Made by a program: the position numbers and the translations under genes
The notes under the pieces: generated by a model
What the model saw: the letters and a program-made list of their open reading frames with translations, nothing else
What the model was told of the DNA's origin: nothing
Databases searched by the model: none
In this document: positions 3,273-25,974 of the stretch, in pieces
Position numbering within the stretch: position 1 is the stretch's first letter
How the letters are laid out: the number at the start of each line of letters is the position of its first letter
Assembly (NCBI GenBank): GCA_964640155.1
Contig: CAZXEQ010000001.1
Span: 516,403 to 548,402 of the forward strand
Direction of reading: 5' to 3'
Source of the DNA: an uncultured bacterium
GTDB lineage: Bacteria > Auribacterota > JACPWU01
DNA: 32,000 nt

Positions 3273-3355
3273 ATATACTGCATAGAGATGGAAGATTTAA
3301 TCAGTCAAATGGATATTTCTAAGATTTGTGCCCGGAAAACCAAAGAAAAAACCGG

Positions 3356-3399
3356 TAGGGTTACACCCCATAGCAAAGTGACAGCCTATGCAGTAGCAT
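3356..3399 (+). promoter_or_regulatory. Island promoter copy A: dyad TAGGGT-TAC-ACCCCA (3356-3370) plus TAGCAT hexamer (3394-3399)
   Basis: Dyad centre 3363 is 31 nt from the first base of the hexamer. A weak -35-like TAGCAA sits 17 nt upstream of the hexamer. The ATG of the downstream gene is at 3435. Confidence 0.55.
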
Positions 3400-3434
3400 G
3401 CTCATAGAAGGAAGGAAATAAAAAGGAGGACGCC

Positions 3435-3599
3435 ATGTTATCCTGGGCAGTTATATTTCTTATTATTGCAATCATTGCTGCTGTTTTTGGGTTTGGCGGA
3501 ATCGCTGTTGCAGCTACAGGTATTGCGAAAATCCTATTCTTTGTCTTCCTCATTTTGTTCGCTTTGTCTTTGATTATGGGATTGGCTAAACGTGCCTAA
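3435..3599 (+). CDS. DUF1328-type small membrane protein (54 aa)
   Basis: Below the ORF-track size cutoff. Strong SD AAAAGGAGGA lies 4 nt before the ATG. Translation is [54 protein letters not shown], which matches my memory of the DUF1328/UPF0391 pattern (FGFGGIA...AKILFF). Confidence 0.8.
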
Positions 3600-3632
3600 G
3601 CAAAAAACGAGTCACCTTAAAAAGAGGTTTAT

Positions 3633-3785
3633 ATGAAAAACATCTTTGCCTTGACTGTAGTTTTTGGTTTATTAACCCTGTGTTCTGGCTGCCATCGTAA
3701 TTCCTATATCAGGGACGATTGCGACCGTCATCATTATCGTAACCATCACCCATCACATCATAGCGCAATGGTGGTTGTAAGATAA
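3633..3785 (+). CDS. small secreted/lipoprotein-like His-rich peptide (50 aa)
   Basis: SD AAGAGG precedes the ATG. Translation is MKNIFALTVVFGLLTLCSGCHRNSYIRDDCDRHHYRNHHPSHHSAMVVVR: a hydrophobic leader, then a Cys/His-rich tail. It shares a CxGC(H/N)R...YR(N/S)H.P.H motif with the 117-aa protein at 11726. Confidence 0.55.
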   Translation: MKNIFALTVVFGLLTLCSGCHRNSYIRDDCDRHHYRNHHPSHHSAMVVVR

Positions 3786-3815
3786 TTAATCCATTATGGG
3801 TTTTGGCTACGCTGA

Positions 3816-3854
3816 GTAGACTATTCTCGAATTTAAGAATGGTCTACTATTTTT
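3816..3854 (+). terminator. Rho-independent terminator after the DUF1328/His-peptide unit
   Basis: 12-bp stem GTAGACTATTCT / AGAATGGTCTAC (one G-U pair), 8-nt loop, followed by TATTTTT. Confidence 0.6.
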
Positions 3855-3939
3855 CACGTCTCGGTAACGATCACTTGAATCCCCAAGGGGACTACAAAAG
3901 ACCGCAGACAGTTTTGTTAAACATGGAAAGGGTTTGTCA

Positions 3940-4719
3940 ATGACACTCGCCTATGAAAGTGCAGGACAAGGGATTCCCTTGATATTGATTCATGCTTTTC
4001 CACTTTCTTCTCAAATGTGGAATCCCCAAATAAAAGGACTGGAACAAAGGGTAAAAGTCATCGCTCCTGATCTTCCTGGATTTGGACGATCACCCCATCA
4101 AGCTAAACCCTGCATTGAGGAAATGGCTCAAGAAGTCGATCGCTTACTTGATTCTCTCAAAGTAAAAGAGCCTGTGATCATGGCTGGGCTTTCTATGGGA
4201 GGCTATGTTGCTTTTGAATTTTTGCGTCAGTTCCCTCATCAAGTGAGAGGGCTGGGACTATTCTCAACTCGAGCCGGTGCTGATACTGAACAAGCACGTG
4301 AGAAAAGATTGAAGACGGCTCAGAGCATTCGTGACTCAGGGCTTGGACCCTTTGCAAAAAGCATTCTTCCTAATCTTCTAGGGAAGACCACACTTGAATC
4401 CAAGCCAGATCTCGTTGATGAAACTAAACGAATGATCCTTGAAAACAACAGCGAAGGCATCGCTTCTGCACTTCTTGCAATGGCGGATCGACAAGACTCA
4501 ACTGAACTTCTGGCGTCCATCCAATGTCCAACTTTGATTATTGCTGGAAATGAAGACTCTCTTATCCCCTTTTCAGAAGCAGAAACCATGCATCGTAAAA
4601 TCCCAAATTCACAACTTCACATCATTGAGAAAGCTGGGCATCTTGTGAATCTTGAACAGCCAGAGGAATTTCAAAAGATTTTAGAAGAGTTTCTCATAAC
4701 AAAATTTCTTCCCAGTTAG
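3940..4719 (+). CDS. alpha/beta hydrolase (serine hydrolase)
   Basis: ORF 3934-4719. ATG 3940 is preceded by GGAAAGG. It has the motifs LILIHAFP, nucleophile elbow GLSMGG and a C-terminal AGHLVNLEQPEEF. Confidence 0.85.
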   Translation: MTLAYESAGQGIPLILIHAFPLSSQMWNPQIKGLEQRVKVIAPDLPGFGRSPHQAKPCIEEMAQEVDRLLDSLKVKEPVIMAGLSMGGYVAFEFLRQFPHQVRGLGLFSTRAGADTEQAREKRLKTAQSIRDSGLGPFAKSILPNLLGKTTLESKPDLVDETKRMILENNSEGIASALLAMADRQDSTELLASIQCPTLIIAGNEDSLIPFSEAETMHRKIPNSQLHIIEKAGHLVNLEQPEEFQKILEEFLITKFLPS

Positions 4720-4729
4720 TGATGATGAT

Positions 4730-5689
4730 TTATTCTAGCTTCTCATTTATCTGATACAAAACCCCACCTGCAATATTAGGTTGAGGTAAAAAATATTTGC
4801 GGGCGATAATCGTTATTTCTGTCTTATGCTCTTCTCTTTTTTTGAGTCTAAGTGTTACATTCGTTCCATTTATTTTTGCTTTAATGAGCCCATGGGTCGC
4901 ATCATCTTTAATTATTTTTCCCATACGTTTTATGACATTCAGACTGGCTTCATACACATGTTCAAAACTTTGTTCAATGGTCTCTTTCACGCTAGATTTA
5001 CCAAAAAATTTTACTGCGAAGACAACAGGCAATACCTCTACACCTGCTAACATCGCAACCTTGTAAATCAGAGCATTTTTTATTGCACCTTTTATTCCTG
5101 CAACCATGAGAGGTTCGGCAAGTAAAAGGACCGTCAACTGTTGTGCGCTGGTAATATTCTTAAAGGTTTTATGGATATTCACATCATGGACTTGAATGCC
5201 AGGCTCCTCACTATTCGTATAATCCTTGTAAACCACTTTCCCGATGTTTAAAGTGAGAAAATCAATTTGCAGGGGAATAGGCTTTGATTTTTGTTTTCCC
5301 GTTTTACCTTCTTCCTGAACGACCTTTAATGAATCTACATTGAGTTTTCCTTCTTTATTTTTGGTAAGGCCGACTTCTTCTATTTTGATCTCTGCAACGA
5401 GGAAGTGAAATTTGCGCTTAAACAAATCAGAGCGATCATAAATAACATTCATTTCAGGGCAAGAGACAAGAATGCCTTCTGGGAACCCGCTAGGATTATA
5501 AATTTTGAATCCGGATATGCGTATCGTTGAGCTTAAAATATTTAATGATAAATGGTCCATTTGGACCGGGGCACCTATAAGCTTAGAAGCAACTCTTATT
5601 ACCCCATATTTAATAATCTGATTCTTAAAAATCGCAATACCACTCAAGATAAAAACAATGACTCCCAGCACCATCAAAAGTTTCTTCAT
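4730..5689 (-). CDS. membrane-anchored hypothetical protein, last gene of the two-component operon
   Basis: ORF 4730-5716. The likely start is MKKLLMVLGVIVFILSGIAIF (ATG 5689), which gives an N-terminal TM helix. The C-terminal third (VKETIEQSFEHVYEASLNVIKRMG...TEITIIARK) resembles DUF3568-type domains, but that is weak recall only. Confidence 0.65.
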   Translation of the reverse strand: MKKLLMVLGVIVFILSGIAIFKNQIIKYGVIRVASKLIGAPVQMDHLSLNILSSTIRISGFKIYNPSGFPEGILVSCPEMNVIYDRSDLFKRKFHFLVAEIKIEEVGLTKNKEGKLNVDSLKVVQEEGKTGKQKSKPIPLQIDFLTLNIGKVVYKDYTNSEEPGIQVHDVNIHKTFKNITSAQQLTVLLLAEPLMVAGIKGAIKNALIYKVAMLAGVEVLPVVFAVKFFGKSSVKETIEQSFEHVYEASLNVIKRMGKIIKDDATHGLIKAKINGTNVTLRLKKREEHKTEITIIARKYFLPQPNIAGGVLYQINEKLE

Positions 5690-5734
5690 AGATGCCGCTT
5701 CCCATCTTTCTCTCATAAATCCCAGAGAAAATAC

Positions 5735-6280
5735 TTACATTTTTGTCGGATCCAATGTGGAAAGGATACTTGCTAAATCATCTGCATGTTCTTCTTCCAT
5801 CGCAAGAATGCTTTCCAGCATTCTGCGTGTAGTAGGATCCTTATCACCCAGATACCGAATCATTTCAGCATAAGATTCGACAGCAATGCGCTCCGCAATT
5901 AAGTCCTCTTTCACCATGTCAGTCAGAGAGTTTCCTTCTACATATTCCGAGTGGCTGCGCATGCTCAAACCATCCGGGTCAAAATTAGGTTTGCCGCCAA
6001 GCTGAGTGATTCGTGCCGCAATTTGATCAGCATGGAGCTGTTCATCGTTAGCATGTTGTAAAAATTCCTGCGCAACAGGTTCAGCATTTATTCCTTTGGC
6101 CATAAAAAAATGGCGCTTGTATCGAAGAACGCAAACGATCTCCGTCGCCAAAGCCTCGTTTAAAATCTTCACAATCGTCGTTCTGTCCCCTTGATATCCT
6201 TGAGTCACGGCACCTCGTTCAATATGTTCTCGTGCACGTCGACGAAGTCCTTTTATATCTGTAAGAAATGGTTTATCCAT
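5735..6280 (-). CDS. ferritin-like (bacterioferritin/Dps superfamily) protein
   Basis: ORF 5735-6382. I prefer ATG 6280 (MDKPFLTD), preceded by AAAGGA. It carries di-iron-type helices: LNEALATEIVCVLRYKRH, EFLQHANDEQLHADQIAARI, EDLIAERIAVESY and LAMEEEHADDL. Confidence 0.8.
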   Translation of the reverse strand: MDKPFLTDIKGLRRRAREHIERGAVTQGYQGDRTTIVKILNEALATEIVCVLRYKRHFFMAKGINAEPVAQEFLQHANDEQLHADQIAARITQLGGKPNFDPDGLSMRSHSEYVEGNSLTDMVKEDLIAERIAVESYAEMIRYLGDKDPTTRRMLESILAMEEEHADDLASILSTLDPTKM

Positions 6281-6390
6281 TTTTAGTATCCTTTGTTTAA
6301 AATGATTTTGCTGAATTTCTTTCTCATCTGCCATCATAAACTGAGAAACGCATGAAGAGCTATGGGGTGAACACCCACCCAAAAACAGCG

Positions 6391-7068
6391 TTAAAGAATT
6401 GTTACCTGAATGCTACTTTCGATAATGCCCGCAGAAATGGCATATCGAGTAAGTCCTGCGGTATCATGAATATTAAGTTTTTCCATCAGACGCTGTCGAT
6501 GTTTTTCTACCGTTTTTATACTGATCTTAAGCTCCGAGGCAATTTGTTTATTGGCACTGCCTTCAGCAATAAGTTGAAGCACTTCCACCTCGCGTGAGCT
6601 TAAGGAAGCGTCTCCTTTCTTGAGGCGTCCTCCTCGATGAGAGGATTTCTGAACAGGATTTTGAAAACGATTAGAAATGGAGGGACTAAAAAATGTGTTC
6701 CCCTTTTGAACTTCCCGAATGGCTTTGGATAAAATCTGGGCAGAGGTTTGTTTGATCAAATAGCCTGCTACGCCTAATGCATTGACTTGTTCAATATAGG
6801 CGTCATCACTGTGTGCAGAGAGAATGATCACCTTCGTAGCAGGAACGGCTTTAAGGATTTGCCGAGTCGCCTCCAATCCATTTAAAAGCGGCATCGCAAT
6901 ATCCATGACGACGACTTCAGGACAAAGTTTTTTGGTAAGTTCCACCGCTTGGCGGCCATTTTGTGCTTCGCCCACCACCTCAATATCGCGTTCGGCTTTT
7001 AATAAAGAGTGCAACCCCTCTCTCACGACGGTGTGATCATCAGCCAAGAGAACAGTGATGGGCTTCAT
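6391..7068 (-). CDS. response regulator, NarL/FixJ (LuxR-type HTH) family
   Basis: 225 aa. The receiver domain reads ITVLLADDHTVVREGL...VVVMDIAMP and the C-terminal LuxR HTH reads LSSREVEVLQLIAEGSANKQIASELKISIKTVEKHRQRLMEKL. It lies 2 nt downstream of the kinase gene. Confidence 0.9.
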   Translation of the reverse strand: MKPITVLLADDHTVVREGLHSLLKAERDIEVVGEAQNGRQAVELTKKLCPEVVVMDIAMPLLNGLEATRQILKAVPATKVIILSAHSDDAYIEQVNALGVAGYLIKQTSAQILSKAIREVQKGNTFFSPSISNRFQNPVQKSSHRGGRLKKGDASLSSREVEVLQLIAEGSANKQIASELKISIKTVEKHRQRLMEKLNIHDTAGLTRYAISAGIIESSIQVTIL

Positions 7069-7070
7069 AA

Positions 7071-7991
7071 TTATAAACCCTCCTTCTCACACGGAATTGT
7101 GGCTCGTATCGTCGTACCTTGAGCTGGAGCCGATTTAACCGTGAAGCTGCCACCGACCATCTCCAAGCGCTCTCGCATGCCAAGAAGTCCCAATCGTTTG
7201 TAACGCTTGGCGAAGAGGACGTGTTCTACTTCAAAACCTTTTCCGTTGTCATTTATTTCCATAAGAATTTCATCCTTCAATTTCTGAATACTCACTTTTG
7301 TCTGACTGGCTTTGGCATGTTGCATAACATTATTAAGAGCGGACTGAGCAACCCGATAGAGAATGGTTCGCTTCGCACTTTTTAATCGTTCCACCCCCGC
7401 AAAAGCCGTGAAATGAACGTTAATTCCAGAGCGTTTTTTAAAATCTTTTAAAAAAGAATGAAGAGCAGGAATGAGGCCTAAATCATCCAACACCGTTGGA
7501 CGTAATTCACGCGCAAACCGATGCACAATGTTCACTGACTTTTCAACCAATTGTTGCGTGCGCGTGATTTTTTTTTCAAGGCCTTTGGTATTAACCATGG
7601 CTTCTATTTTCAACGTTGCAAGATGAACGTTGATCCCTGTCAAAGTCTGGGCGATTTCATCATGTAATTCACGACTGATTTCTTTACGTTCTTCCTCCTG
7701 AGCCCACAAAAGTTGACGGGATAAATGCCGCAATTGTTCCTGCATACGACGCGATTCTTCCAACAACTGGGTATAATGTTGTTTGCTTTTCTTAAGAGAA
7801 ACTTCCGAAAGCTGACTTTGAATTCTTTCTTGTTTCAACTGCTGATTTGCAGCAGCTAGTTCTTTGGTACGCTGGTGCAAACTATTTTCTAATTTTCTCA
7901 AGTAGACTTCAGACTGCAAAGCAGTGCCATGCGTTTTTTTGATAATTTTGGAAAATTTGGGTTGAGGCAATTTGTTTAACTTATCATTCAT
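7071..7991 (-). CDS. histidine kinase, HisKA_3 type, cytoplasmic, no recognisable sensor domain
   Basis: 306 aa. The H-box is EEERKEISRELHDEIAQTLTG and the HATPase motifs are NNVMQHA, DNGKGF and GLLGMRERL. The N-terminal ~90 aa are only coiled-coil-like (Q/E/K/L rich), with no TM segment. Confidence 0.9.
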   Translation of the reverse strand: MNDKLNKLPQPKFSKIIKKTHGTALQSEVYLRKLENSLHQRTKELAAANQQLKQERIQSQLSEVSLKKSKQHYTQLLEESRRMQEQLRHLSRQLLWAQEEERKEISRELHDEIAQTLTGINVHLATLKIEAMVNTKGLEKKITRTQQLVEKSVNIVHRFARELRPTVLDDLGLIPALHSFLKDFKKRSGINVHFTAFAGVERLKSAKRTILYRVAQSALNNVMQHAKASQTKVSIQKLKDEILMEINDNGKGFEVEHVLFAKRYKRLGLLGMRERLEMVGGSFTVKSAPAQGTTIRATIPCEKEGL

Positions 7992-8033
7992 AAGAATATC
8001 TTTCTAATTCACGCGCCACTATGACCTTACTCT

Positions 8034-8077
8034 ATTATCCGATACTTATTTCAATCCGTCCATGGGGTAAAACCCTA
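8034..8077 (-). promoter_or_regulatory. Island promoter copy B-prime (minus strand): dyad TAGGGT-TTT-ACCCCA (8077-8063) plus GATAAT (8039-8034)
   Basis: Read on the minus strand: GTAGGGTTTTACCCCATGG...CGGATAAT. Dyad centre 8070 is 31 nt from the hexamer's first base at 8039. The kinase ATG is at 7991. Confidence 0.45.
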
Positions 8078-8097
8078 CTTGCCATTAAAGATCCTGC

Positions 8098-8229
8098 ATA
8101 TAAAAGTGTGTCCTTTATAGATGCGGGTGACACTTGGCGGGGTGCCCCATCGCGCGCAACTTTTCGTGAGCACGATGGGGCTGACAAGTGGCAGGACCCG
8201 CCACTTTTTTAAAGGACACACTTTTATAT
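8098..8229. repeat. Family-1 hairpin element, copy 1 (132 nt, near-perfect long palindrome with a conserved GC-rich core)
   Basis: Arms are ATATAAAAGTGTGTCCTTTA / TAAAGGACACACTTTTATAT. Inner helices are GCGGGT/ACCCGC, CACTTG/CAAGTG and CCCCATCG/CGATGGGG. A second copy lies at 18723-18856. Confidence 0.75.
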
Positions 8230-8287
8230 ACAACATGGCCATAAATACTGCTCGAACTGCCAGAACGAAGAAAGCGGGTCTACGAGG

Positions 8288-8331
8288 TAGGGTTTTACCC
8301 CATAGTAGAAGCCAACTATATGGCGTAGTAT
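8288..8331 (+). promoter_or_regulatory. Island promoter copy B: dyad TAGGGT-TTT-ACCCCA (8288-8302) plus TAGTAT (8326-8331)
   Basis: Dyad centre 8295 is 31 nt from the hexamer. It sits upstream of the glycosyltransferase gene. Confidence 0.5.
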
Positions 8332-8373
8332 GTTAGTGGTTAGTTGCAAAGCTAAGTGGGGAACGATCTAAAA

Positions 8374-10677
8374 ATGGAAATAAAAACAAAGTCTGATCTA
8401 CAACAAATTGCAGTCATTGGTGGCTACTTGCCGAGGCAATGTGGTATCGCTACTTTTACCAGTGATTTGTGCGAGTCGCTGGCCACTCAGTTTCCAGCCA
8501 GCCAATTTTTTGCAGTACCGGTTACAGACGCACAAGCCGGGTACGACTACCCTCCACGCGTCCGCTTTGAGTTTGCGGAACGTGACATCGACTCCTATAC
8601 AGGAGCGGCAGATTTCTTGAATCTTAATGATGTCGATATCGTCTCTGTTCAACATGAATATGGAATTTTTGGAGGTTCAGCGGGCAGTTATCTTTTAGCT
8701 CTGTTGCGTGATTTACGTATGCCGGTCGTTACAACACTACACACCATTCTTCAAAATCCAAATCCCGATCAGAGGCAAGTCATGGGAGAAATTGGACGTT
8801 TATCAGATCGTCTGGTGGTGATGAGCCACCGTGGAAAACAATTTCTTCAGGAGATTTACAAAATACCCCCTGAGAAAATAGATTTGATACCCCATGGCAT
8901 TCCTGATGTACCTTTTACAGACTCCAGTTTTTTCAAGGACAAATTGGGGGTGGAAGGTCGATTTGTTTTGCTCTCTTTCGGACTTCTTTCAGCAAATAAA
9001 GGCCTTGAAAATGTTATAGAAGCACTCCCTGCGATCATCGCTCGCTACCCTAACGTCGTATATGTGGTCGTTGGCGCAACACATCCGCATGTTCGTCAAA
9101 GTGAAGGGGAATCTTATCGACTTTACTTGGAACAATTAGCGCAAGACCTTGGCGTGGCACATTGTGTGATTTTTCACAATCGCTTCGTCAGCATCAACGA
9201 ACTATTAGAATTCATCGGGGCAGCAGACATCTACATCACGCCGTATCTGAACCCGGCTCAAATTGTTTCTGGTACTTTAGCTTACACCGTGGGCGCTGGC
9301 AAGGCAGTTATCTCGACTCCTTATTGGCACGCAGAAGAATTGCTGGCTGAGGGCCGAGGACTATTAGTCCCTTTTAAAAATCCCCAAGCCATCGCAGAGC
9401 AAGTCTTATATCTACTGACTAATGAGACAGCACGACATGCGATGCGAAAGCAAGCTTACTTACATGCCCGAAATATGATTTGGCCGGCAGTTGCCCAACA
9501 ATATATGTCTTCTTTTGAACGAGCACGTGACGAACGTCGACAGAAACCACGTGCCATGTTTGTGGCTCCGACTCTTGACAAAAGGCCTCGAGCCTTGCCA
9601 GATATTGATCTAGCACATATTCACAGAATGACCGACGATATTGGAATTCTTCAACATGCAATTATTACTGTTCCCAGTTACGCTGAGGGCTACACCACAG
9701 ACGACAATGCACGAGCACTGGGACTGACCGCTCTGATTGAGCAATTCGGAGAAATTGCATTGCCCGAGGTTCAAAATCTCATGTCCCGATATCTTGGATT
9801 TCTTTGGTACGCCTATAACGCTCAGACGGGGCGGTTTCGTAATTTTCTCTCTTTTGATCGTCGCTGGACGGAGGATGTGGGCTCTGAGGATTCTCACGGA
9901 CGTGCACTTTGGGGACTGGGTTGTTTACTCGGGCACTCGCACAATTTAGGATTACGGGGTTCAGCAAGTCGGCTTTTCCAACTCGCCTTACCTGCTGCGA
10001 TAGATTTAAAGAGCCCTCGCGCCTGGGCCTTCACCATTACAAGCTTACATGAATACTTGAAACAATTTCAGGGAGACAGAACCGCAACAACGGTTCGAGA
10101 TACTCTTGTACAGAAATTGATGGATTCCTATCTCGCTCACAGCACCCCCGATCGACCGTGGTTTGAAGACTCCCTCTCCTACTGCAATGCCCATCTTCCA
10201 TGTGCTTTACTTTTAGGCGGACAAAGTTTGGGAAAACCTGAAATGACGCAAGCGGGATTGAAAGCATTGGAATGGCTTGTAGGCGTTCAGCGACCCGAAG
10301 GCAAACATTTTGTACCCATCGGATCCAATGGATTTTATCCGAATGGCGGAACTCGAGCACGCTTTGATCAGCAGCCGATTGAAGCTTACGCAACTCTCTC
10401 CGCTTGCCTAGAAGCACATCGTATTACAGGGGAGGAACGTTGGAAAAAAGAGGCACAACACGCATTCGATTGGTTTTTAGGTCGTAACGATTTACGGCTC
10501 TCTTTGTATGATGCTGCGACGGGTGGCTGTCGTGATGGTCTACACTCAGACCGATTGAATCAAAATGAAGGAGCTGAATCTACTCTCGCATTTCTGCTTT
10601 CTCTTCTGGAATGGCGATTATCAGAAAACGTTATCATCAATGGAAGGAAAACAAGCAATGGCAATCATCGGACATGA
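8374..10677 (+). CDS. GT4-family glycosyltransferase fused to a ~370-aa C-terminal domain of unknown function
   Basis: ORF 8356-10677 (GTG). The ATG at 8374 gives MEIKTKSDLQQIAVIGGYLPRQCGIATFT. The N-terminal ~400 aa have a GT-B/GT4 pattern (VSVQHEYGIFGG, LLSFGLLSANKGLE, ADIYITPYLNPAQIVSGTLAYTVGAGKAVISTP). The C-terminal part (HIHRMTDDIGILQHA...YTTDDNARAL...WFLGRN) is helical-repeat-like. Confidence 0.85.
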   Translation: MEIKTKSDLQQIAVIGGYLPRQCGIATFTSDLCESLATQFPASQFFAVPVTDAQAGYDYPPRVRFEFAERDIDSYTGAADFLNLNDVDIVSVQHEYGIFGGSAGSYLLALLRDLRMPVVTTLHTILQNPNPDQRQVMGEIGRLSDRLVVMSHRGKQFLQEIYKIPPEKIDLIPHGIPDVPFTDSSFFKDKLGVEGRFVLLSFGLLSANKGLENVIEALPAIIARYPNVVYVVVGATHPHVRQSEGESYRLYLEQLAQDLGVAHCVIFHNRFVSINELLEFIGAADIYITPYLNPAQIVSGTLAYTVGAGKAVISTPYWHAEELLAEGRGLLVPFKNPQAIAEQVLYLLTNETARHAMRKQAYLHARNMIWPAVAQQYMSSFERARDERRQKPRAMFVAPTLDKRPRALPDIDLAHIHRMTDDIGILQHAIITVPSYAEGYTTDDNARALGLTALIEQFGEIALPEVQNLMSRYLGFLWYAYNAQTGRFRNFLSFDRRWTEDVGSEDSHGRALWGLGCLLGHSHNLGLRGSASRLFQLALPAAIDLKSPRAWAFTITSLHEYLKQFQGDRTATTVRDTLVQKLMDSYLAHSTPDRPWFEDSLSYCNAHLPCALLLGGQSLGKPEMTQAGLKALEWLVGVQRPEGKHFVPIGSNGFYPNGGTRARFDQQPIEAYATLSACLEAHRITGEERWKKEAQHAFDWFLGRNDLRLSLYDAATGGCRDGLHSDRLNQNEGAESTLAFLLSLLEWRLSENVIINGRKTSNGNHRT

Positions 10678-11602
10678 TATTTTATTTGAACGTTACAATC
10701 GAAACCCAATCCTGAGTGTCGCATCTTGGCCGTACCCCGCTAATACAGTCTTTAATCCAGGGGCCACACTATTAGAGGATGGTACTACACTCCTACTCTG
10801 TCGTGTGGAGGATAGGCGTGGACATTCTCATCTCTGTGCAGCAAGATCTGTAGACGGAATTGAAGGTTGGCAAATTGACAAAGAACCTACCCTGTTGGCC
10901 GATCCCATACAATATCCAGAGGAGATCTGGGGTATTGAAGACCCACGCATCACTTATTTAGCTGAATTAGAAAAATTTGCCATCGTCTATACCTCCTTTT
11001 CACGGGGAGGACCTGGCGTATCTCTTGCTCTCACCCAAGACTTCAAACACTTTGAGCGATTGGGCATGGTGATGTCACCGGAGGACAAAGACGCAGCACT
11101 TTTTCCACGAAGAATTGGAAAATACTGGGCCATGATTCACCGACCTGTCGGTCCCCTTGGAGCCCACATGTGGATTTCCTATTCCCCCGATTTACGGCAC
11201 TGGGGAAGCCATGAACTGATGCTTGAAGCACGGCGTGGCTCCTGGTGGGACGCAAACAAAATTGGGCTATGCTCACCTCCTATCGAAACTCCTGAGGGCT
11301 GGCTCGTCATTTATCATGGGGTTCGCCAAACCGCTGCCGGCTGTTTGTACCGACTGGGACTCGCCTTATTCGATCTTCAAAAACCAGCTAAATGTCTTCG
11401 TCGCAGTCCTGCTTGGGTTTTTGGTCCAGAAGCTCCCTACGAACTTGAGGGTGACGTAGATAAAGTAGTTTTCCCATGCGGTCACACCATCGCGCCGGAC
11501 GGCGACACCATTCAAATCTATTATGGGGCTGCTGATACATGCGTCTGTTTGGCCACCGGAAGCATACGGTCTCTCTTGGCCTGGCTCAAAGAAAACGGAT
11601 AA
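10658..11602 (+). CDS. GH130-family glycosidase/phosphorylase-like protein (PH1107-related glycosidase)
   Basis: ORF 10565-11602. ATG 10658 (MAIIGHDILFERYNRNPIL) is preceded by GGAAGGA and overlaps the GT stop by 20 nt. Motifs NPGATLLEDGTTLLLCRVEDRRG, WGIEDPRITY, EDKDAALFPRRI and YYGAADT are typical of GH130 five-bladed propellers. Confidence 0.85.
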   Translation: MAIIGHDILFERYNRNPILSVASWPYPANTVFNPGATLLEDGTTLLLCRVEDRRGHSHLCAARSVDGIEGWQIDKEPTLLADPIQYPEEIWGIEDPRITYLAELEKFAIVYTSFSRGGPGVSLALTQDFKHFERLGMVMSPEDKDAALFPRRIGKYWAMIHRPVGPLGAHMWISYSPDLRHWGSHELMLEARRGSWWDANKIGLCSPPIETPEGWLVIYHGVRQTAAGCLYRLGLALFDLQKPAKCLRRSPAWVFGPEAPYELEGDVDKVVFPCGHTIAPDGDTIQIYYGAADTCVCLATGSIRSLLAWLKENG

Positions 11603-11637
11603 ATGACCTGATTTTCTAACACTCAAATAATTTAAGG

Positions 11638-11681
11638 TAGGGTTACACCCCATAGCACAGGATCATTACATGACGTAGCAT
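11638..11681 (+). promoter_or_regulatory. Island promoter copy C: dyad TAGGGT-TAC-ACCCCA (11638-11652) plus TAGCAT (11676-11681)
   Basis: Dyad centre 11645 is 31 nt from the hexamer. The downstream ATG is at 11726. Confidence 0.55.
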
Positions 11682-11725
11682 CATATTCGTATGAAGTTAC
11701 AAAAAAATTCAAAAGGAGTCATCTT

Positions 11726-12079
11726 ATGAAAAAACTTTTTTTACTTCTCTTACCAGTCTTAATGTTTTTTTCAACACCCTCTCTGTATGCTTACCATGAT
11801 TATGACTCGTCTGGTTATTATGGACACCGGGATCGATTTTTGTTTTGTCCTGGCTGCAATCGCTACCATTATCGTAGTCATCCTCACTTTCAACAGATCT
11901 ATAGTACAGGAGATTACTATCATCCTCGTGCTACCCATTATGGGGCACATAAAGACAGAGCAGGTCAACATGTCCGTACGGAGAATGTTACAAACCCCTA
12001 TCAGCATGGCGTACGTCATGGAAATCGTTATAGATCAAATGAAGGACAACATTCAGGAAGCTACTACAGACATGAATAA
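11726..12079 (+). CDS. secreted His/Tyr/Arg-rich low-complexity protein (117 aa)
   Basis: SD AAAGGAG precedes the ATG. The signal peptide reads MKKLFLLLLPVLMFFSTPSLYA. The mature part is rich in H, Y, R and G (YHDYDSSGYYGHRDRFLFCPGCNRYHYRSHPHF...GSYYRHE). Confidence 0.6.
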   Translation: MKKLFLLLLPVLMFFSTPSLYAYHDYDSSGYYGHRDRFLFCPGCNRYHYRSHPHFQQIYSTGDYYHPRATHYGAHKDRAGQHVRTENVTNPYQHGVRHGNRYRSNEGQHSGSYYRHE

Positions 12080-12117
12080 TTTATCCTTATATTTTATTTG
12101 ATAGCCGGACTCCTCAC

Positions 12118-13239
12118 ATGTCGGGAATAACTTCAGATCGTCTCAAACGAAGCAAAGAAAAGATCATATCCCTGTGGGAACAGCGCGCCCTAAAAGAGAT
12201 TCCATCTGCAGGGATGGTATCCACTCTGATTCTGAGGAACTCAATACCCGTTTATTTAGAACATCTGGCTAAGTCTCTTTCTACAAGCCAAAAAATGGAT
12301 AGTAAGTCTGTTTTTGATCACGACGCGGAAGCAATGCGAATTGGGAAACTTCATGGCAGTGAAAGAGCGGGAAGCGTCCATTATATTCTGAGTGAGGTGA
12401 TCTCTGAATATCACATCTTAAGAGAAGTCATTTTCCAAGTTTTGGAAGAGGAAGATCCCCTCTCTAAAGATGAACGTGACATCATTTTAGATTCAATAGA
12501 ACAAATCATAAACGATGCTGCCGTTAAATTCACACAAGTCCACTCAGACATACAACAGAAGTTTATCAATACTTTAACTCACGATCTGAAGAGTCCTCTT
12601 ACTGTCGCAAAAGCGAGTGCACAACTCATTTTAAAGCAACCTGATATATCTGACGTTAGTATAAGTTTTGCAAAAAAAATTGTTGCAAGCATAAACCGTC
12701 TGGACGCCATGATTCATGATCTTTTAGATGCGAGTAGAATTCGTGCTGGTGAAGAACTAACGCTTCAATTTACTGAATACGACTTGGACGCTCTTATCCA
12801 CGAAGTGATTGATGAAATGGTTATTGTTCATGGCGACCGTTTCATATTACACTCCCCAACTCAAGTCATGGGACATTGGGGATGTGACGGACTCAGACGA
12901 ACGATAGAGAATTTGATTGGCAATGCAGTCAAATATTCTACGCCTGAAACTCCAATTACAATTTCGTTAAAAAAAATGGATACTTTTGTCCAGCTTGTTG
13001 TCCACAACGAGGGAGCAGCCATCCCTGAAAAAGAACAACCCTTTTTATTCCAGCAATTTCGACGGGTTAAGAATGATAATGAAAGCATGAACACCGGCTG
13101 GGGATTAGGTCTTACCTTGGTAAAAGGGGTTGTAGATGCTCATAAGGGAACCGTTCGTGTCGAAAGTGTAACAGGACGCGGAACAAGTTTTATTATTGAA
13201 ATCCCTCTTTCTAAACTTCCATCCTTGGTACAAGTTTAA
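12118..13239 (+). CDS. cytoplasmic sensor histidine kinase (HisKA + HATPase_c) with a ~140-aa helical N-terminal domain; no cognate regulator adjacent
   Basis: 373 aa. The H-box is FINTLTHDLKSPL and the N, G1 and G2 boxes are NLIGNAVKYS, HNEGAAIP and GWGLGLTLV. No TM segment is present. Confidence 0.85.
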   Translation: MSGITSDRLKRSKEKIISLWEQRALKEIPSAGMVSTLILRNSIPVYLEHLAKSLSTSQKMDSKSVFDHDAEAMRIGKLHGSERAGSVHYILSEVISEYHILREVIFQVLEEEDPLSKDERDIILDSIEQIINDAAVKFTQVHSDIQQKFINTLTHDLKSPLTVAKASAQLILKQPDISDVSISFAKKIVASINRLDAMIHDLLDASRIRAGEELTLQFTEYDLDALIHEVIDEMVIVHGDRFILHSPTQVMGHWGCDGLRRTIENLIGNAVKYSTPETPITISLKKMDTFVQLVVHNEGAAIPEKEQPFLFQQFRRVKNDNESMNTGWGLGLTLVKGVVDAHKGTVRVESVTGRGTSFIIEIPLSKLPSLVQV

Positions 13240-13283
13240 AGTTTCCGCTCTCATTATTTGAGTAACACCTCCCATCGTTCAAG

Positions 13284-13327
13284 TAGGGTTACACCCCATA
13301 GCAAAGGACCCGCCTATAGCGTAGGAT
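13284..13327 (+). promoter_or_regulatory. Island promoter copy D: dyad TAGGGT-TAC-ACCCCA (13284-13298) plus TAGGAT (13322-13327)
   Basis: Dyad centre 13291 is 31 nt from the hexamer. The downstream ATG is at 13363. Confidence 0.55.
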
Positions 13328-13362
13328 GCACTTGAACAATAAACTAAAAAAGGAAATACAAA

Positions 13363-14142
13363 ATGAAAAAGAACATGACTCTGCTTCTCGCTATTGCATT
13401 TGCATTGCTGTTGACAGATCGAGCGCCACTTCGTGCCGCAGATACAGACAGTCGTATCGAAAACTCATTCAAAGACTCCTACGTCTATAAAACATTTCTT
13501 AAAGACGAGCACATCAAAATCAGTTCAAAAGATGGAGTTGTAACTTTGTCAGGCGATGTATTTGATCCATCTCATAAACCTATGGCCCAGGATACTGCTG
13601 AAGCTTTACCAGGGGTCAAGAGCGTGGACAATCGCATTGAACTCTCAGGGGAACAAGCTGCCGAGCGCTCAGATACATGGATCAGCATGAAAGTAAAATC
13701 AGCGCTGCTCTATCGCCGTAGCGTAAGCGGTCTCGACACTGAAGTTTTTGTGAAGGATGGAATCGTCACATTAAAAGGTGAAGCCAGCAATACCGCACAA
13801 AGAGATCTAACGACTCAATACGCTCAAGATATAGATGGTGTCAAAAGCGTCAATAATGAAATGAGTATTGCTAAGGCTCCGAAAGAAGATATCCGAACAA
13901 CGGATGAAAAAATTGATGATGCTTCCATCACAGCTCAAATTAAAAGCACACTCCTTCTTCACCGTTCAACCAGCACACTAAGGACGGATGTAGAGACAAA
14001 AGAGGGCGAAGTCACACTAACGGGTGATGCGAAGAACCAAGCAGAAAAAGACTTGGTCAGTAAACTCGTAGGTGACATTAATGGTGTAAAAAGCGTGAAT
14101 AACAACATGACCATAGGGCAGAAATTAGCAAAGAACTCATAA
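13363..14142 (+). CDS. periplasmic BON-domain protein (three BON repeats, OsmY-like)
   Basis: 259 aa. The signal peptide reads MKKNMTLLLAIAFALLLTDRAPLRA. Three repeats follow the pattern ...(V/I)TL(S/K/T)G(D/E)...DI(D/N)GVKSVNN. Confidence 0.9.
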   Translation: MKKNMTLLLAIAFALLLTDRAPLRAADTDSRIENSFKDSYVYKTFLKDEHIKISSKDGVVTLSGDVFDPSHKPMAQDTAEALPGVKSVDNRIELSGEQAAERSDTWISMKVKSALLYRRSVSGLDTEVFVKDGIVTLKGEASNTAQRDLTTQYAQDIDGVKSVNNEMSIAKAPKEDIRTTDEKIDDASITAQIKSTLLLHRSTSTLRTDVETKEGEVTLTGDAKNQAEKDLVSKLVGDINGVKSVNNNMTIGQKLAKNS

Positions 14143-14159
14143 ACAGATAGATAACTACT

Positions 14160-14180
14160 GCGGGTGCGACATGCACCCGC
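14160..14180 (+). terminator. GC-rich hairpin between the BON gene and the next small gene (possible partial terminator or processing site)
   Basis: GCGGGTGC-GACAT-GCACCCGC, an 8-bp perfect stem. It is followed by TTGTAGTG rather than a clean U-run, hence the low confidence. Confidence 0.35.
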
Positions 14181-14216
14181 TTGTAGTGAATACAAAGTAA
14201 GAGAAAGGAGAATGCT

Positions 14217-14366
14217 ATGTTGTGGACAATTGCAGTAGTCATGTTCGTTCTGTGGGCACTAGGACTTGTCAGTAGTTACACAATGGGAGGGTTCATTCAT
14301 ATCCTACTGGTAGTTGCCATCGTCATGGTGCTCGTCAGCTTTATTTCAGGGCGACGAAAAGTATAG
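14217..14366 (+). CDS. lmo0937-family small membrane protein (49 aa)
   Basis: Below the ORF-track cutoff. SD GAAAGGAG precedes the ATG. Translation is MLWTIAVVMFVLWALGLVSSYTMGGFIHILLVVAIVMVLVSFISGRRKV, which matches my memory of the MLWTI...GGFIH(I/L)LLV...GRR family pattern. Confidence 0.75.
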   Translation: MLWTIAVVMFVLWALGLVSSYTMGGFIHILLVVAIVMVLVSFISGRRKV

Positions 14367-14400
14367 AAATTATTTGAGATAAAAATGGAGGAACAAAAAC

Positions 14401-14607
14401 ATGAACAAATCAATCTCTCTCGCACTTCTTGTAGGAGGCATTGCACTTATAATCATCGGGATCAATGCGACAGACTCGTTTAGCTCCGATGTTTCCCGGT
14501 TTTTCACAGGTTCTCCAACTGACAAGGCAATATGGATGCTCATCGGTGGTATCGCCGCATCAATCGTCGGAGCAGTAGGTCTAACGCGCGGATCATCAGC
14601 AGTTTGA
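14401..14607 (+). CDS. DUF3185-type small membrane protein (68 aa)
   Basis: SD GGAGGA precedes the ATG. Translation is MNKSISLALLVGGIALIIIGINATDSFSSDVSRFFTGSPTDKAIWMLIGGIAASIVGAVGL; the FTGSPTDK motif between two TM helices is characteristic. Confidence 0.8.
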   Translation: MNKSISLALLVGGIALIIIGINATDSFSSDVSRFFTGSPTDKAIWMLIGGIAASIVGAVGLTRGSSAV

Positions 14608-14649
14608 ATACAATCTCTTTTCTACCCAGTGTTCTATAAGGAATTCTTT

Positions 14650-14871
14650 ATGAGATCCAAAAATCTTAGTTCCAATCATTCTAATCACGCTCGCCCCTTT
14701 GATCTTCGATTACCAGGGCATCATTTATACGACCAGTGGATAGCGTATCAATTTCATTCTGGCTTACCTGGGGACCGAAAAAATCAAACATGCTCCACCA
14801 CCGCCGATTGTTGGAGTACCCATACGGGCTGGCGAAATCGTCTTACTAATCACGACCAACCGAAAGCCTAA
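14650..14871 (+). CDS. hypothetical protein (73 aa), doubtful
   Basis: ORF 14629-14871. The internal ATG 14650 has SD AAGGAA at a 7-nt spacing. The protein (MRSKNLSSNHSNHARPFDLRLPGHHLYDQW...) has no recognisable family and no TM or signal sequence. Confidence 0.3.
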   Translation: MRSKNLSSNHSNHARPFDLRLPGHHLYDQWIAYQFHSGLPGDRKNQTCSTTADCWSTHTGWRNRLTNHDQPKA

Positions 14872-15110
14872 CTATCTGTATCCACACAAAATAACTCTAA
14901 CAACACATGACAGAAGTAATTGTGCTATGGGGGTTATTACTTAAAGGGGGAAGTATTATGAAAAGAGCTCTATGGGATAACTTGCAGGAAGACAAAAGAA
15001 TGGAAGTGTTAGTATTTTCTTATATTGCATCGACTCTTAGAACGTAAAAAATACAGAACAGGATTGAACAAAAACCTAGGAAGTTTTATTTGTTTTTAAA
15101 CAAACCAATT

Positions 15111-15236
15111 TTATTTTCCTTGAATAGCCTCGCCCGTCTTCTCCACATCTTTGCCCAAACCTCTATATGCATTACAACCCACAACCAATGATGTGATAAC
15201 GACAAAACAGGCTAGAATAAACATGATTTTTTTCAT
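15111..15236 (-). CDS. entericidin A/B-type small lipoprotein (41 aa)
   Basis: Below the ORF-track cutoff. Translation is MKKIMFILACFVVITSLVVGCNAYRGLGKDVEKTGEAIQGK, with a lipobox-like VVGC followed by the N.xRG.G.D motif of entericidins. SD AAGGAGA lies upstream. Confidence 0.7.
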   Translation of the reverse strand: MKKIMFILACFVVITSLVVGCNAYRGLGKDVEKTGEAIQGK

Positions 15237-15283
15237 TTTTATCTCCTTAGTTTTGTAATGAACTATTCCCATATGAATCCCAT

Positions 15284-15907
15284 TTACACGTAGACACGCT
15301 CTCTCTTTTGCTTTGCAATATTAAATCGATCCTGGACTTCCTTCCAATAAATGGCTTTCAAGAAAGTGAGAATATATTGCTCTCGTTCTAAACCATAATC
15401 TGTCATAAAGGCATGTTCAAAAACATCCATGACGAGCATGAGCTCAGTACCAGCTAGAAAGCCTAAATCATGTTCGTTGATCCAAACATTAAAAAGCCTG
15501 TTTCCAATACTGTCATAAGCCAAAATAACCCATCCGATTCCTCGCATGGAACCCATCGCAACAAATTCTTTACGCCAGTTTTCGAATGATCCAAAATCTT
15601 GCGAAATTTTTTCGGATAAGGTACTTGCGGGTGCTAAGAGATTTATATCTTTTCCCATATTTCCGAAGTAATATTCATGCAGCCTCATGCCATTAAATTC
15701 CCACCCGAATCTGCGTTTTAACTCTGAGAATCCAGGTTTCTTATATTCCTCGGGAGTCTTGATTGAAGTAAAAAAATCACTCAATTGATTTGTATTTTTG
15801 ACATAGCCTTCGTACAACTTAAAATGAGTTTCTAATAGTCTATTGCTAAAGCCAGGGATTCCCAGCAAATACTCAAAACTCTTCGCTTCATAATGTTTAA
15901 CTATCAT
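15284..15907 (-). CDS. Fe/Mn-family superoxide dismutase
   Basis: 207 aa. The metal-ligand contexts are conserved: ETHFKLYEGYV, EFNGMRLHEYYF and MDVFEHAF. SD GAGGAA lies upstream. Confidence 0.88.
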   Translation of the reverse strand: MIVKHYEAKSFEYLLGIPGFSNRLLETHFKLYEGYVKNTNQLSDFFTSIKTPEEYKKPGFSELKRRFGWEFNGMRLHEYYFGNMGKDINLLAPASTLSEKISQDFGSFENWRKEFVAMGSMRGIGWVILAYDSIGNRLFNVWINEHDLGFLAGTELMLVMDVFEHAFMTDYGLEREQYILTFLKAIYWKEVQDRFNIAKQKRERVYV

Positions 15908-15922
15908 TTTTTCCTCTATTTC

Positions 15923-16081
15923 TTACAAACGACCTGTCAACAAAAGAACGACTACCACAATAACAATCACTGAAACAAGACCACTGGGCGCATATCCCCA
16001 ACTACGGCTATGGGGCCATGCTGGAATGATTCCCACCAATAAAAATACCAACACGATCGTCAACAACATTCCGATATTCAT
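15923..16081 (-). CDS. DUF3309-type small membrane protein (52 aa)
   Basis: Below the ORF-track cutoff. SD GAGGAG precedes the ATG. Translation is MNIGMLLTIVLVFLLVGIIPAWPHSRSWGYAPSGLVSVIVIVVVVLLLTGRL; the P.WP.SR.WGY.PSG motif is diagnostic as I recall it. Confidence 0.75.
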   Translation of the reverse strand: MNIGMLLTIVLVFLLVGIIPAWPHSRSWGYAPSGLVSVIVIVVVVLLLTGRL

Positions 16082-16108
16082 ATTTGTCTCCTCTTTATAT
16101 CAACTATC

Positions 16109-16154
16109 ATGATACGACTGGAAACCCTACAAGCGCTATGGGGTATTCACCCCA
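16109..16154 (-). promoter_or_regulatory. Island promoter copy E (minus strand): perfect dyad TGGGGT-GAAT-ACCCCA (16154-16139) plus TATCAT (16114-16109)
   Basis: Minus-strand reading is GTTGGGGTGAATACCCCATAGCG...GTCGTATCATGA. There is one extra spacer base and 24 rather than 23 nt between the proximal half-site and the hexamer. The downstream ATG is at 16081. Confidence 0.5.
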
Positions 16155-16203: not shown

Positions 16204-16232
16204 TTTACCAAAGCAAATTTGATTGCTATAAT
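16204..16232 (+). promoter_or_regulatory. sigma-70-like promoter for the peptidase/ATP-grasp pair (TTTACC-17 nt-TATAAT)
   Basis: -35 TTTACC at 16204-16209, a 17-nt spacer and a perfect -10 TATAAT at 16227-16232, 27 nt upstream of ATG 16259. Confidence 0.4.
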
Positions 16233-17335: not shown

Positions 17336-17362
17336 GAGTTTCCTGAAACAAGGAGAGTCTCT

Positions 17363-18382: not shown

Positions 18383-18722
18383 TCTCATTCTTGAATACCT
18401 TCTAAATCTACAAAAAAATACCCCACCTATGCCGTTAGAAAGACCTCTTTTGCGCAAAACCTCATTCATGTGGGTTCGCTATGTTCTATTTCAGACTACT
18501 CCGATTTTCACCGGAGCCTGTCATCCATAAACCAGGCAGCGTTCCCCGCTTTTCTTTTGTTGGCTAAAAGATATGTCTTCCCGTGACGTACACTGCAGGG
18601 TATTTTTTTAAATTCAATTTTAAAAGAGCACTAAAAACCAAAAATCTTTTATTTATAGTTAATATTTTCGACCTCTTTTTTGAGAAAAGCAAGTATTTTT
18701 TGAGGAAAAGAAAAAGAGGCCA

Positions 18723-18856
18723 TCTATAAAAATATGACCTTTATTGATGCGGGTGATGCTCGGCGGGGCGCCCCATCGAGCGCAACTTTTGCTGAGCACG
18801 ATGGGGCTGACGAGCAGCAGGACCCGCTACTTTTTCAAAGGTCATATTTTTATAGA
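18723..18856. repeat. Family-1 hairpin element, copy 2 (134 nt)
   Basis: Arms are TCTATAAAAATATGACCTTTA / CAAAGGTCATATTTTTATAGA. The core is about 86% identical to copy 1 by my hand alignment. It lies between the convergent ATP-grasp gene and pheT. Confidence 0.75.
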
Positions 18857-25949: not shown

Positions 25950-25974
25950 TAAGATCTGGGCGATACAGGGATCG
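25950..25974. repeat. Direct repeat, right copy (overlaps the last 18 nt of tRNA-Val)
   Basis: Identical 25-mer. The repeats diverge immediately outside it on both sides. Confidence 0.9.

Follow-up and report, generated by a model that had tools for sequence, protein, structure and literature searches.

The dyad and the genes behind it

The DNA analysed here is a stretch of 32 kb from an uncultured bacterium, called the window below, and all positions are counted from its first nucleotide. It contains a stress island in which seven copies of a dyad with the pattern TRGGGT-N3/4-ACCCCA (N3/4 being a spacer of three or four nucleotides) stand in front of seven transcription units, one of which encodes a HisKA_3 histidine kinase and a NarL/LuxR-type response regulator. 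The dyad is probably the operator of this adjacent kinase-regulator pair, which would activate a general-stress-like regulon together with its own operon.

The pattern search of the window gave cores at 3356-3370, 8288-8302, 11638-11652 and 13284-13298 on the plus strand and at 8063-8077 and 16139-16154 on the minus strand, and the copies were then anchored on ACCCCA. A sequence-only reading of this DNA had reported these six copies; all of them exist, but its count was short by one, as it missed the copy GGTGGGTGTTCACCCCAT at 6379-6362 on the minus strand. This seventh copy begins 10 nt past the stop codon of the regulator gene, and it is followed 24 nt downstream by TATGAT (6338-6333) and then by the ATG of the ferritin-like gene at 6280. 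Two details of that reading are corrected: the copy at 13282 begins with AG rather than GG, and the two minus-strand strings, which had been placed one base off, lie at 8078-8060 and 16156-16134. The hexamers that it placed behind its six copies were confirmed at the positions listed below.

Each site is an 18-bp near-palindrome consisting of two 9-bp half-sites, and it occurs in two forms. Form A reads GGTAGGGTT followed by ACACCCCAT, and form B reads ATGGGGTGA followed by ACACCCCAT. The promoter-proximal half is thus common to both forms, while the distal half is its mirror image in form B and lies 1 bp inward in form A. The seven copies are listed with their -10 hexamers and their scores on a weight matrix trained on other genomes only.

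3354..3375, plus strand: operator copy 1, form A (GGTAGGGTTACACCCCATAGCA), -10 TAGCAT at 3394-3399, 28.3 bits
6362..6379, minus strand: operator copy 7, N4 form with a degenerate distal half (GGTGGGTGTTCACCCCAT), -10 TATGAT at 6338-6333, 25.9 bits
8060..8078, minus strand: operator copy of the kinase-regulator operon, form A (GTAGGGTTTTACCCCATGG), -10 GATAAT at 8039-8034, 26.3 bits
8286..8307, plus strand: operator copy 2, form A (GGTAGGGTTTTACCCCATAGTA), -10 TAGTAT at 8326-8331, 22.9 bits
11636..11657, plus strand: operator copy 3, form A, -10 TAGCAT at 11676-11681, 24.5 bits
13282..13303, plus strand: operator copy 4, form A (AGTAGGGTTACACCCCATAGCA), -10 TAGGAT at 13322-13327, 26.5 bits
16134..16156, minus strand: operator copy 5, form B (GTTGGGGTGAATACCCCATAGCG), -10 TATCAT at 16114-16109, 28.2 bits

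A distance of 23 nt separates ACCCCA from the TAnnAT-type hexamer in each of the five N3 copies, and one of 24 nt in the N4 copy with TATCAT. A ribosome-binding site and a start codon follow 20-50 nt beyond the hexamers, and all seven sites point ACCCCAT at their downstream gene. On the map of open reading frames of the window, 7/7 sites are intergenic. The sequence GGGTNNNACCCCAT, with at most one mismatch, has 5 matches in the window against 0.15 expected, and 0/100 shuffles reach 5. On the cross-genome weight matrix the seven sites score 22.9-28.3 bits, and the next best position of the window reaches 11.2 bits. Further weak copies were rejected on account of this clean gap between 22.9 and 11.2 bits, and the matrix scan found no dyad site in 16.2-32 kb. 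The housekeeping half of the window, with pheST, infC, thrS and efp, has none.

The position of the site relative to the promoter was calculated by setting the -10 hexamer at -12 to -7, that is, by assuming a start 7 nt after the hexamer. With this start, the 18-mer would span -52 to -35 with its centre at -43.5 in form A, and -52/-53 to -35/-36 with its centre at -43.5 or -44.5 in form B. A two-hexamer sigma-70 match was obtained at only 1/7 promoters, that of the kinase, where it is weak, and 6/7 have no -35 match; the promoters were thus rejected as self-sufficient canonical sigma-70 promoters. The class II activator geometry proposed in the sequence-only reading would hold, with the dyad centre at about -43/-44.5 and six of the seven promoters without a -35 match. 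That reading had also described a -35-like hexamer 17 nt from the -10, but in the TATCAT copy TAGCGC is 18 nt away; the hexamer itself (TAGCAA and its variants) is better taken as ATrGC, a conserved promoter-proximal flank of the site, than as a -35 element.

An extra half-site-like GTAGGGTTT was observed inside the spacer of copy 5 (16109-16133, minus strand), between the dyad and the -10 of the DUF3309 gene, and the matching spacer reads cGGTTTCCCGG in other genomes. Read in reverse, towards the Peptidase_Mx/ATP-grasp genes (16259-18382), copy 5 has TAAACT 23 nt off. This reverse reading was not counted because the Peptidase_Mx gene owns a good sigma-70-like promoter with a TG extension, TTTACC-17-TATAAT, at 16204-16232.

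The transcription units behind the sites are the following.

3435..4719, plus strand: unit 1, a DUF1328 membrane protein (3435-3599), an open reading frame (3633-3785) and an alpha/beta-hydrolase (3934-4719)
4730..6280, minus strand: unit 2, a ferritin/Dps-like protein (5735-6280) and a DUF748 protein (4730-5716)
6391..7991, minus strand: unit 3, the cytoplasmic HisKA_3 histidine kinase (7071-7991) and the NarL/LuxR-type response regulator (6391-7068)
8356..11602, plus strand: unit 4, a 773-aa GT4 glycosyltransferase and a GH130 mannoside phosphorylase-like protein
11726..13239, plus strand: unit 5, a His/Tyr-rich secreted 117-aa protein (11726-12079) and a second, HisKA-type histidine kinase (12118-13239)
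13363..14607, plus strand: unit 6, a triple-BON OsmY-like protein (13363-14142), DUF5670 (14217-14366) and DUF3185 (14401-14607)
15111..16081, minus strand: unit 7, DUF3309 (15923-16081), an Fe/Mn-SOD-like protein (15284-15907) and an entericidin-like lipoprotein (15111-15272)

Comparable gene sets are under the control of SigB, RpoS or EcfG in other bacteria. The GT4 glycosyltransferase of unit 4 has a long C-terminal extension, and an orthologous GT4 is likewise downstream of the motif in two other loci (L049 and L111); the pairing of GT4 with GH130 presumably resembles the synthesis of compatible solutes of the mannosyl-glucosylglycerate type in Planctomycetes. Two small plus-strand reading frames in motif-headed units, 11726-12079 and 3633-3785, have no Pfam match. 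The latter encodes a His-rich, lipoprotein-like product of 50 aa, and both products are secreted or lipoprotein-like and very rich in His, Tyr and Arg (e.g. YHDYDSSGYYGHRDR...HYRSHPH), so that they may bind metals. The second kinase (12118-13239) has a weak RsbRD_N-like N-terminus with E = 7e-4, which is below the cut-off.

The motif and its island in other genomes

Two sets of loci were collected from other genomes. The first, the regulator-anchored set, was chosen solely by the presence of an orthologue of the adjacent NarL-type regulator (67-77% identical) and consists of 80 loci from species-representative genomes, 1.14 Mb in total. These genomes belong to Verrucomicrobiota (including Opitutaceae, Akkermansiaceae, Pedosphaera, Limisphaerales and Methylacidiphilales), Kiritimatiellota, Lentisphaerota, Phycisphaerae/Sedimentisphaerales and Omnitrophota, with a few bins labelled otherwise, and the G+C content of the loci is 0.47-0.68 against 0.40 in the window. 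The second, the motif-anchored set, was obtained by scanning metagenome contigs with the motif alone (GGTAGGGTTNNACCCCATRG) and comprises at least 120 loci. The families downstream of the sites were counted by pooled Pfam scans on heuristic calls of open reading frames (based on G+C at third codon positions), some of which are wrong.

In the 80 regulator-anchored loci, 249 cores of GGGT-N3/4-ACCCC were found, and the strict form GGGT-N3/4-ACCCCAT occurs 190 times against 0.9 expected from first-order Markov simulations, which is an excess of more than 200-fold. At least one strict site is present in 55/80 loci, and the sites are densest immediately before the kinase and immediately after the regulator, as in the window. 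The spacing to the promoter is also conserved: TAnnnT stands exactly 23 nt downstream in 45/99 form-A cores, where every other offset accounts for at most 4, and the offset of form B is 23 or 24 nt. The families behind the motif in this set are the HisKA_3 kinase (17), BON (8), FA_desaturase (6), DUF3309 (5), DUF5670 (5), DUF948 (3) and PRC (3).

The reverse approach gave a corresponding result. Orthologues of the regulator (57-76% identity) were found in 13 of the at least 120 motif-anchored loci and in 12/50 of those of at least 5 kb, that is, in 24%, while an arbitrary single-copy gene would be met in a 9-kb window in about 0.2% of cases by our own estimate. Here, the families behind the motif are BON (10), DUF5670 (6), HisKA_3 (5), PRC (4), YflT (4), CsbD (3), dodecin (2), OsmC (2) and helical lipoproteins, and BON and DUF5670 are the commonest motif-headed genes in other genomes. 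The association between motif and regulator is reciprocal, loci chosen by the one being enriched in the other, and it bears out the tie to the adjacent regulator that the sequence-only reading had drawn. Its suggestion of one regulon also agrees with these data, as the identical motif with identical phasing stands before orthologous gene families in many other genomes, and the co-occurrence with orthologous gene sets in related genomes that it had proposed to look for was found. The recurrence in both sets indicates that the motif marks a conserved, dispersed and, from the families behind it, general-stress-like regulon, which tends to cluster around the kinase-regulator pair.

The cross-genome comparison also bears on how the site is read. 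Form B is palindromic over ATGGGGTG..CACCCCAT, and its oriented logo is aTGGGGTgAAC ACCCCAT. For orthologous promoters, namely those of the kinase-regulator operon and of DUF3309, the form varies between A and B from genome to genome, so that both forms probably have the same regulator as their reader. Divergent -10 hexamers can also share one form-B palindrome lying between them, e.g. in the locus L001 at 12184/12195. The palindromy and the single palindromes between divergent -10 elements argue for a dimeric DNA-binding protein as the likely reader rather than a sigma factor.

The genomic surroundings of the island were compared as well. PheS (21516-22556) is 76% and 71% identical to proteins of metagenome-assembled genomes labelled 'Chlamydiae bacterium', so that the housekeeping genes suggest an organism close to Chlamydiota, whereas the nearest named relatives of the regulator belong to Verrucomicrobiota. 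In two relatives of this 'Chlamydiae bacterium' kind, GCA_016196915.1 and GCA_016178005.1, the synteny of efp-thrS-infC-rplT-pheST is kept but the stress island is not beside pheT, and no motif was found in the stretch examined of these two assemblies. The G+C content of the island is 0.427 against 0.392 in the rest of the window, a small difference. It is possible that the island was acquired by horizontal transfer.

Other elements of the window lie between or beyond the motif-headed units. The only Rfam matches in the window are a tRNA at 25957-26030 and a 6S RNA at 18416-18604, both on the minus strand. The tRNA gene is upstream of thrS, and the 6S/SsrS RNA gene, with 64 bits against a gathering score of 46.4, lies just past the end of the stress island. 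A palindromic repeat of about 130 nt occurs twice, at 8100-8230 and 18726-18856, with a column identity of 92%. The first copy is flanked by the two divergent dyads in the kinase/GT4 intergenic region, the second by the 6S RNA gene and pheT. Either strand of the repeat forms one long hairpin of -65 kcal/mol (z = -8.5 and -10.1), and three differences in the outer stem are compensatory between the copies (GTGTGTCC/GGACACAC vs ATATGACC/GGTCATAT). This repeat is a miniature inverted-repeat transposable element (MITE)-like element or a structured RNA, separate from the dyad motif.

The adjacent regulator and rival explanations

The regulator (6391-7068) has the standard REC plus GerE layout, with Pfam matches to Response_reg (2.7e-26) and GerE (9.2e-21). 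Its close homologues number in the thousands; for the best 120, full-length identity is 72-81%, and those that are named belong to Verrucomicrobiia, Verrucomicrobiota and Kiritimatiellaeota. Across Verrucomicrobiota, Kiritimatiellota, Lentisphaerota, Phycisphaerae and Omnitrophota the identity is 67-81%. The recognition helix KTVEKHR is at least 98% invariant in the 120 homologues, which parallels the invariance of the DNA motif. Among solved structures in the PDB, the nearest are VraR/LiaR, NarL, DesR and DevR (VraR 1e-42, NarL 3e-29, DevR (3c3w) 4e-27), and the best NCBIfam models are MctR with 192 of 300 bits, UvrY/GacA with 165 of 280 and NarL with 130 of 250. The regulator falls under the curated cut-off of the NCBIfam equivalogs NarL, NarP, UvrY/GacA, MctR, UhpA, EvgA, RcsB and FixJ, and because no equivalog cut-off is reached, it belongs to no named orthologous group.

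The kinase (7071-7991) likewise stays under the cut-off of its NCBIfam model, MctS, with 173 of 700 bits. It is a cytoplasmic protein of 306 aa that consists of HisKA_3 and HATPase_c only, with a coiled coil ahead of HisKA_3. In 13/17 orthologous kinases elsewhere, and in 4 more of the motif-anchored set, an RsbU_N-like N-terminal domain precedes HisKA_3, and L001:8801-9955 was among the orthologues compared with the kinase of the window. No such domain was found by Pfam in the 306-aa kinase of the window, and the Omnitrophota orthologues (L016, L073) are similarly short. RsbU_N is the docking domain for partner-switching kinases of the RsbT type in SigB signalling, and kinases with RsbU_N have been noted as possible outputs of the stressosome (PMC12143880, PMC9237108).

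In the proposed mechanism, whose binding step, direction (activation rather than repression), phosphorylation dependence, transcription starts and inducing signal are inferred, the response regulator would bind the dyad, working with the cytoplasmic HisKA_3 kinase. The proximal end of the site would abut the place expected for a -35 element, with the centre about 43-44 bp upstream of the predicted start. The target promoters appear to keep a -10 element, TAnnnT, at a fixed 23-24 nt and to have no usable -35, and since the -10 is kept where a usable -35 is absent, they would depend on the bound regulator. The bound and presumably phosphorylated dimer would then recruit RNA polymerase, which amounts to class II activation. 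The regulon would be a general-stress or dormancy-type set: in the window, it would comprise the OsmY-like BON protein, DUF1328, DUF3309, DUF5670, DUF3185, entericidin, the Dps/ferritin-like and SOD-like proteins and the glycosyltransferase/GH130 pair, to which CsbD, YflT, OsmC, PRC-barrel and dodecin would be added elsewhere. As the kinase-regulator operon would be its own target, positive feedback may result.

Several observations weigh against this mechanism or qualify it. Strict sites are absent from the stretch examined in 25/80 regulator loci, and a site with the exact core precedes the kinase-regulator operon in just 20/58 loci with sufficient upstream sequence, so that the autoregulation suggested in the sequence-only reading would be recurrent, not universal. 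Having been selected for the regulator, the loci of the first set are inevitably biased in its favour. The motif-anchored test removes only part of this bias, since the search pattern also fits the promoter of the kinase. The class II position depends on the start assumed above, and a site overlapping the -35 region could be equally suited to repression. The distal half of form A, GGTAGGGTT, shifted by 1 bp, is strongly conserved, which a simple palindrome model does not predict. In addition, conservation is much stronger in the proximal flank ATrGC than in its mirror image, form B has an oriented centre whose GAAC faces the promoter, and the spacers of 23-24 nt are themselves conserved across phyla in three sub-classes. 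In the form-A stress genes the spacer reads ...GC.aagg.cc.gCccat.GCgTAg..T, in the form-B promoters with 24 nt it reads ...GCgcccGCacggttTccCgGCtTAT..T.atg, and in the kinase operon it reads ...GGACgGaTTGAgGCAAtcGTCaGAnAgTGAC. The asymmetric flank, the oriented centre and the conserved spacers therefore mean that something besides a symmetric dimer reads the promoters, which could be contacts of the polymerase, a second factor or a special sigma factor.

In the form-B/24 sub-class, an ATG is often found where the transcript should start (ATG or GTG about 7 nt past the -10 at L001:10733, L002:10741, L010:5574 and L046:3754), which suggests that these promoters may make leaderless mRNAs. All copies in the window have Shine-Dalgarno leaders, unlike this sub-class elsewhere.

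It is unlikely that the dyad, as a real operator, serves a different transcription factor whose gene lies elsewhere in the genome, with the kinase-regulator pair a mere member of the regulon. In favour of this explanation, the kinase-regulator operon bears the motif like any target, a nearby regulator orthologue is missing from 38/50 motif-anchored loci of at least 5 kb, and further factors are hinted at by the asymmetry of form A and the conservation of the spacers. However, the regulator is the sole DNA-binding protein that recurs beside the motif across phyla, and it does so in 24% of these loci against the estimated 0.2% for a single-copy gene. Its recognition helix is as invariant as the motif, and LuxR-type dimers bind exactly such inverted repeats, as is known from the family and from DosR (PMC3177182).

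A second explanation, which is less probable again, is that the adjacent regulator binds but represses, occluding the -35 region until a stress signal removes it. In 6/7 promoters there is no recognisable -35 to occlude. The strict phasing to the -10, kept over a G+C content of 40-67%, is typical of contact between activator and polymerase and not of steric blocking, and DosR, with identical geometry, activates. These points outweigh, in our assessment, the end of the proximal half-site near -36, at the expected seat of sigma region 4, and the ability of NarL-family regulators to repress from such positions.

We consider it improbable to a slightly greater degree that the elements form the promoter of a dedicated alternative sigma factor, e.g. 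of the extracytoplasmic function (ECF) type, with ACCCCATAGC as -35, CGTAnnnT as -10 and no activator. The -10 of form-A promoters often reads GCGTAGCCT, and ECF -10 elements commonly contain CGTA; the CGTA-type -10, however, is confined to form A, and the 'AAC' signature of the -35 is absent. The conservation of the ATrGC flank past the palindrome would suit a sigma factor, but the distal half-site is conserved like the proximal one, form B is a true palindrome, and a single palindrome can serve divergent -10 elements. With 23-24 nt between ACCCCA and the -10, a -35 centred on ACCCCA would be too distant. A sigma-70-family gene is among the motif-headed genes in one locus (L045), yet the motif has no sigma/anti-sigma pair tied to it in the window, nor one that recurs across the loci, and there is no sigma gene in 1-18 kb of the window.

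A genome-specific repeat (of the repetitive extragenic palindromic or MITE type), RNA hairpin or terminator without a part in transcription initiation, which might be thought of since copy 1 on the minus strand is flagged as terminator-like (TGGGGTGTAACCCTA followed by T-rich sequence) and a genuine MITE-like palindrome exists in the window at 8100-8230 and 18726-18856, is effectively refuted by the conservation of sequence, orientation and -10 distance before orthologous genes in several phyla, which mobile repeats and terminators lack. An RNA element was rejected, as there is no Rfam match at any copy and the stems are just 4-6 bp, and so was a terminator, as copy 1 alone is flagged, on a strand without an incoming gene.

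Activation by the adjacent regulator thus being preferred, a wider and much more tentative reading concerns its reach. The HisKA_3/NarL pair with its 18-bp operator might act throughout the Planctomycetes-Verrucomicrobia-Chlamydiae (PVC) group (Verrucomicrobiota, Kiritimatiellota, Lentisphaerota, Planctomycetota-Phycisphaerae and Chlamydiota-like lineages) and in Omnitrophota as the master switch of general stress or dormancy, with a two-component system in the place of SigB, RpoS or EcfG and with RsbU_N input from an RsbT-type module in most lineages; the pair and its cis-element might have been conserved since before these phyla diverged, or spread by gene transfer. We regard this reading as possible but doubtful.

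For Verrucomicrobia, Lentisphaerae, Kiritimatiellia, Omnitrophota and environmental chlamydiae, which are abundant in soil, freshwater and gut and are poorly tractable, no account of the organisation of the general stress response was found in the literature. The present analysis provides a precise cis-element, a candidate regulator with a near-invariant DNA-reading helix and a predicted regulon that is directly readable from the genomes and metagenomes of these phyla. The content of the PVC stress regulon, its control by a two-component regulator as opposed to a sigma factor, and the input through RsbU_N-type kinases are thereby made testable. The motif can also serve as an annotation rule that marks dozens of small DUF membrane proteins as stress-induced. 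A non-coding 18-mer conserved with its promoter spacers across phyla, over a G+C content of 40-67%, is unusual in itself.

Comparison with known systems

The class of mechanism, a response-regulator operator at a class II position, is known, while no description seems to exist of this operator, of this regulator clade or of the regulon. The motif strings were not found in the literature searched by exact string, and the literature on general stress and two-component systems of the PVC group, on regulons with DUF3309, DUF1328, BON or CsbD and on stressosome-linked kinases of Planctomycetes gave no description of the motif or the regulon. This agrees with the sequence-only reading, which had not recognised the operator from any described regulon.

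The systems closest by sequence, VraR/LiaR, NarL, UvrY/GacA and MctR, share the REC plus GerE layout, a HisKA_3 partner kinase and dimers on inverted repeats. They serve cell-envelope stress, nitrate respiration and carbon storage, in contrast to the general-stress set considered here, and their operators are not known to be related in sequence to the dyad. The operator of NreBC of Staphylococcus is TAGGGN4CCCTA; this system also has a NarL-family regulator and a GC-rich dyad, and its TAGGG equals the distal half of form A, a likeness that we take as a lead only. It differs in the spacing of the inner triplets (GGG-N4-CCC against GGG-N5/6-CCC here), in its Fe-S PAS kinase and in its regulon of nitrate respiration.

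In gene content, the regulon is comparable to those of SigB in Firmicutes, RpoS in Gammaproteobacteria and EcfG in Alphaproteobacteria, to which the CsbD, YflT, OsmY/BON, OsmC, Dps-like, PRC-barrel and entericidin families are assigned; small membrane proteins are a further common element. The present system differs from these in its predicted control by an activator dyad with a housekeeping-type -10 as a two-component output, with no sigma-specific -35/-10 pair. The RsbU_N histidine kinases, which have been proposed as outputs of the stressosome or RsbT, resemble the orthologous kinases elsewhere, 13/17 of which have the RsbU_N-like domain. The kinase of the window differs from them in having no RsbU_N, no rsbRST is beside the operon in the loci examined, and for these kinases no regulon or operator was found described.

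The most extensive likeness is to DosR/DevR of Mycobacterium tuberculosis. An orthologue of DevR was rejected, as the match to DevR (3c3w, 4e-27) is weaker than that to VraR (1e-42) and the kinase is HisKA_3 plus HATPase_c only, without the GAF or haem domain of the mycobacterial system. The recognition helix reads KTVEKHRQR here and KTVKNYVSR in DosR, the two differing at the base-contacting positions of DosR. The half-site is ATGGGGTGA here against SGGGACTW, and only the GGG/CCC triplets are shared with TTSGGGACTWWAGTCCCSAA. One site per promoter is found here, in contrast to the obligatory two to four tandem boxes, at least two tandem Dev boxes per promoter being required (PMC3177182). Both systems nevertheless have a NarL-family regulator and a palindrome of about 18-20 bp with G-triplets in each half, and the GGG...CCC spacing of form B, TGGG-N8-CCCA, is equal to that of the Dev box TTSGGGACTWWAGTCCCSAA. 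Class II activation has been demonstrated for DosR by structural work: at hspX, where the -35 is suboptimal, the neighbouring DosR box has its centre near -43.5, and both sigma region 4 and the alpha subunit are in contact with the dimer (PMC13486717). The centre at about -43.5 by a weak -35, the class II type, the stress or dormancy regulon and autoregulation, which are known for DosR/DevR (PMC3177182, PMC13486717), are matched by the features predicted for the dyad and the kinase-regulator pair of the window.

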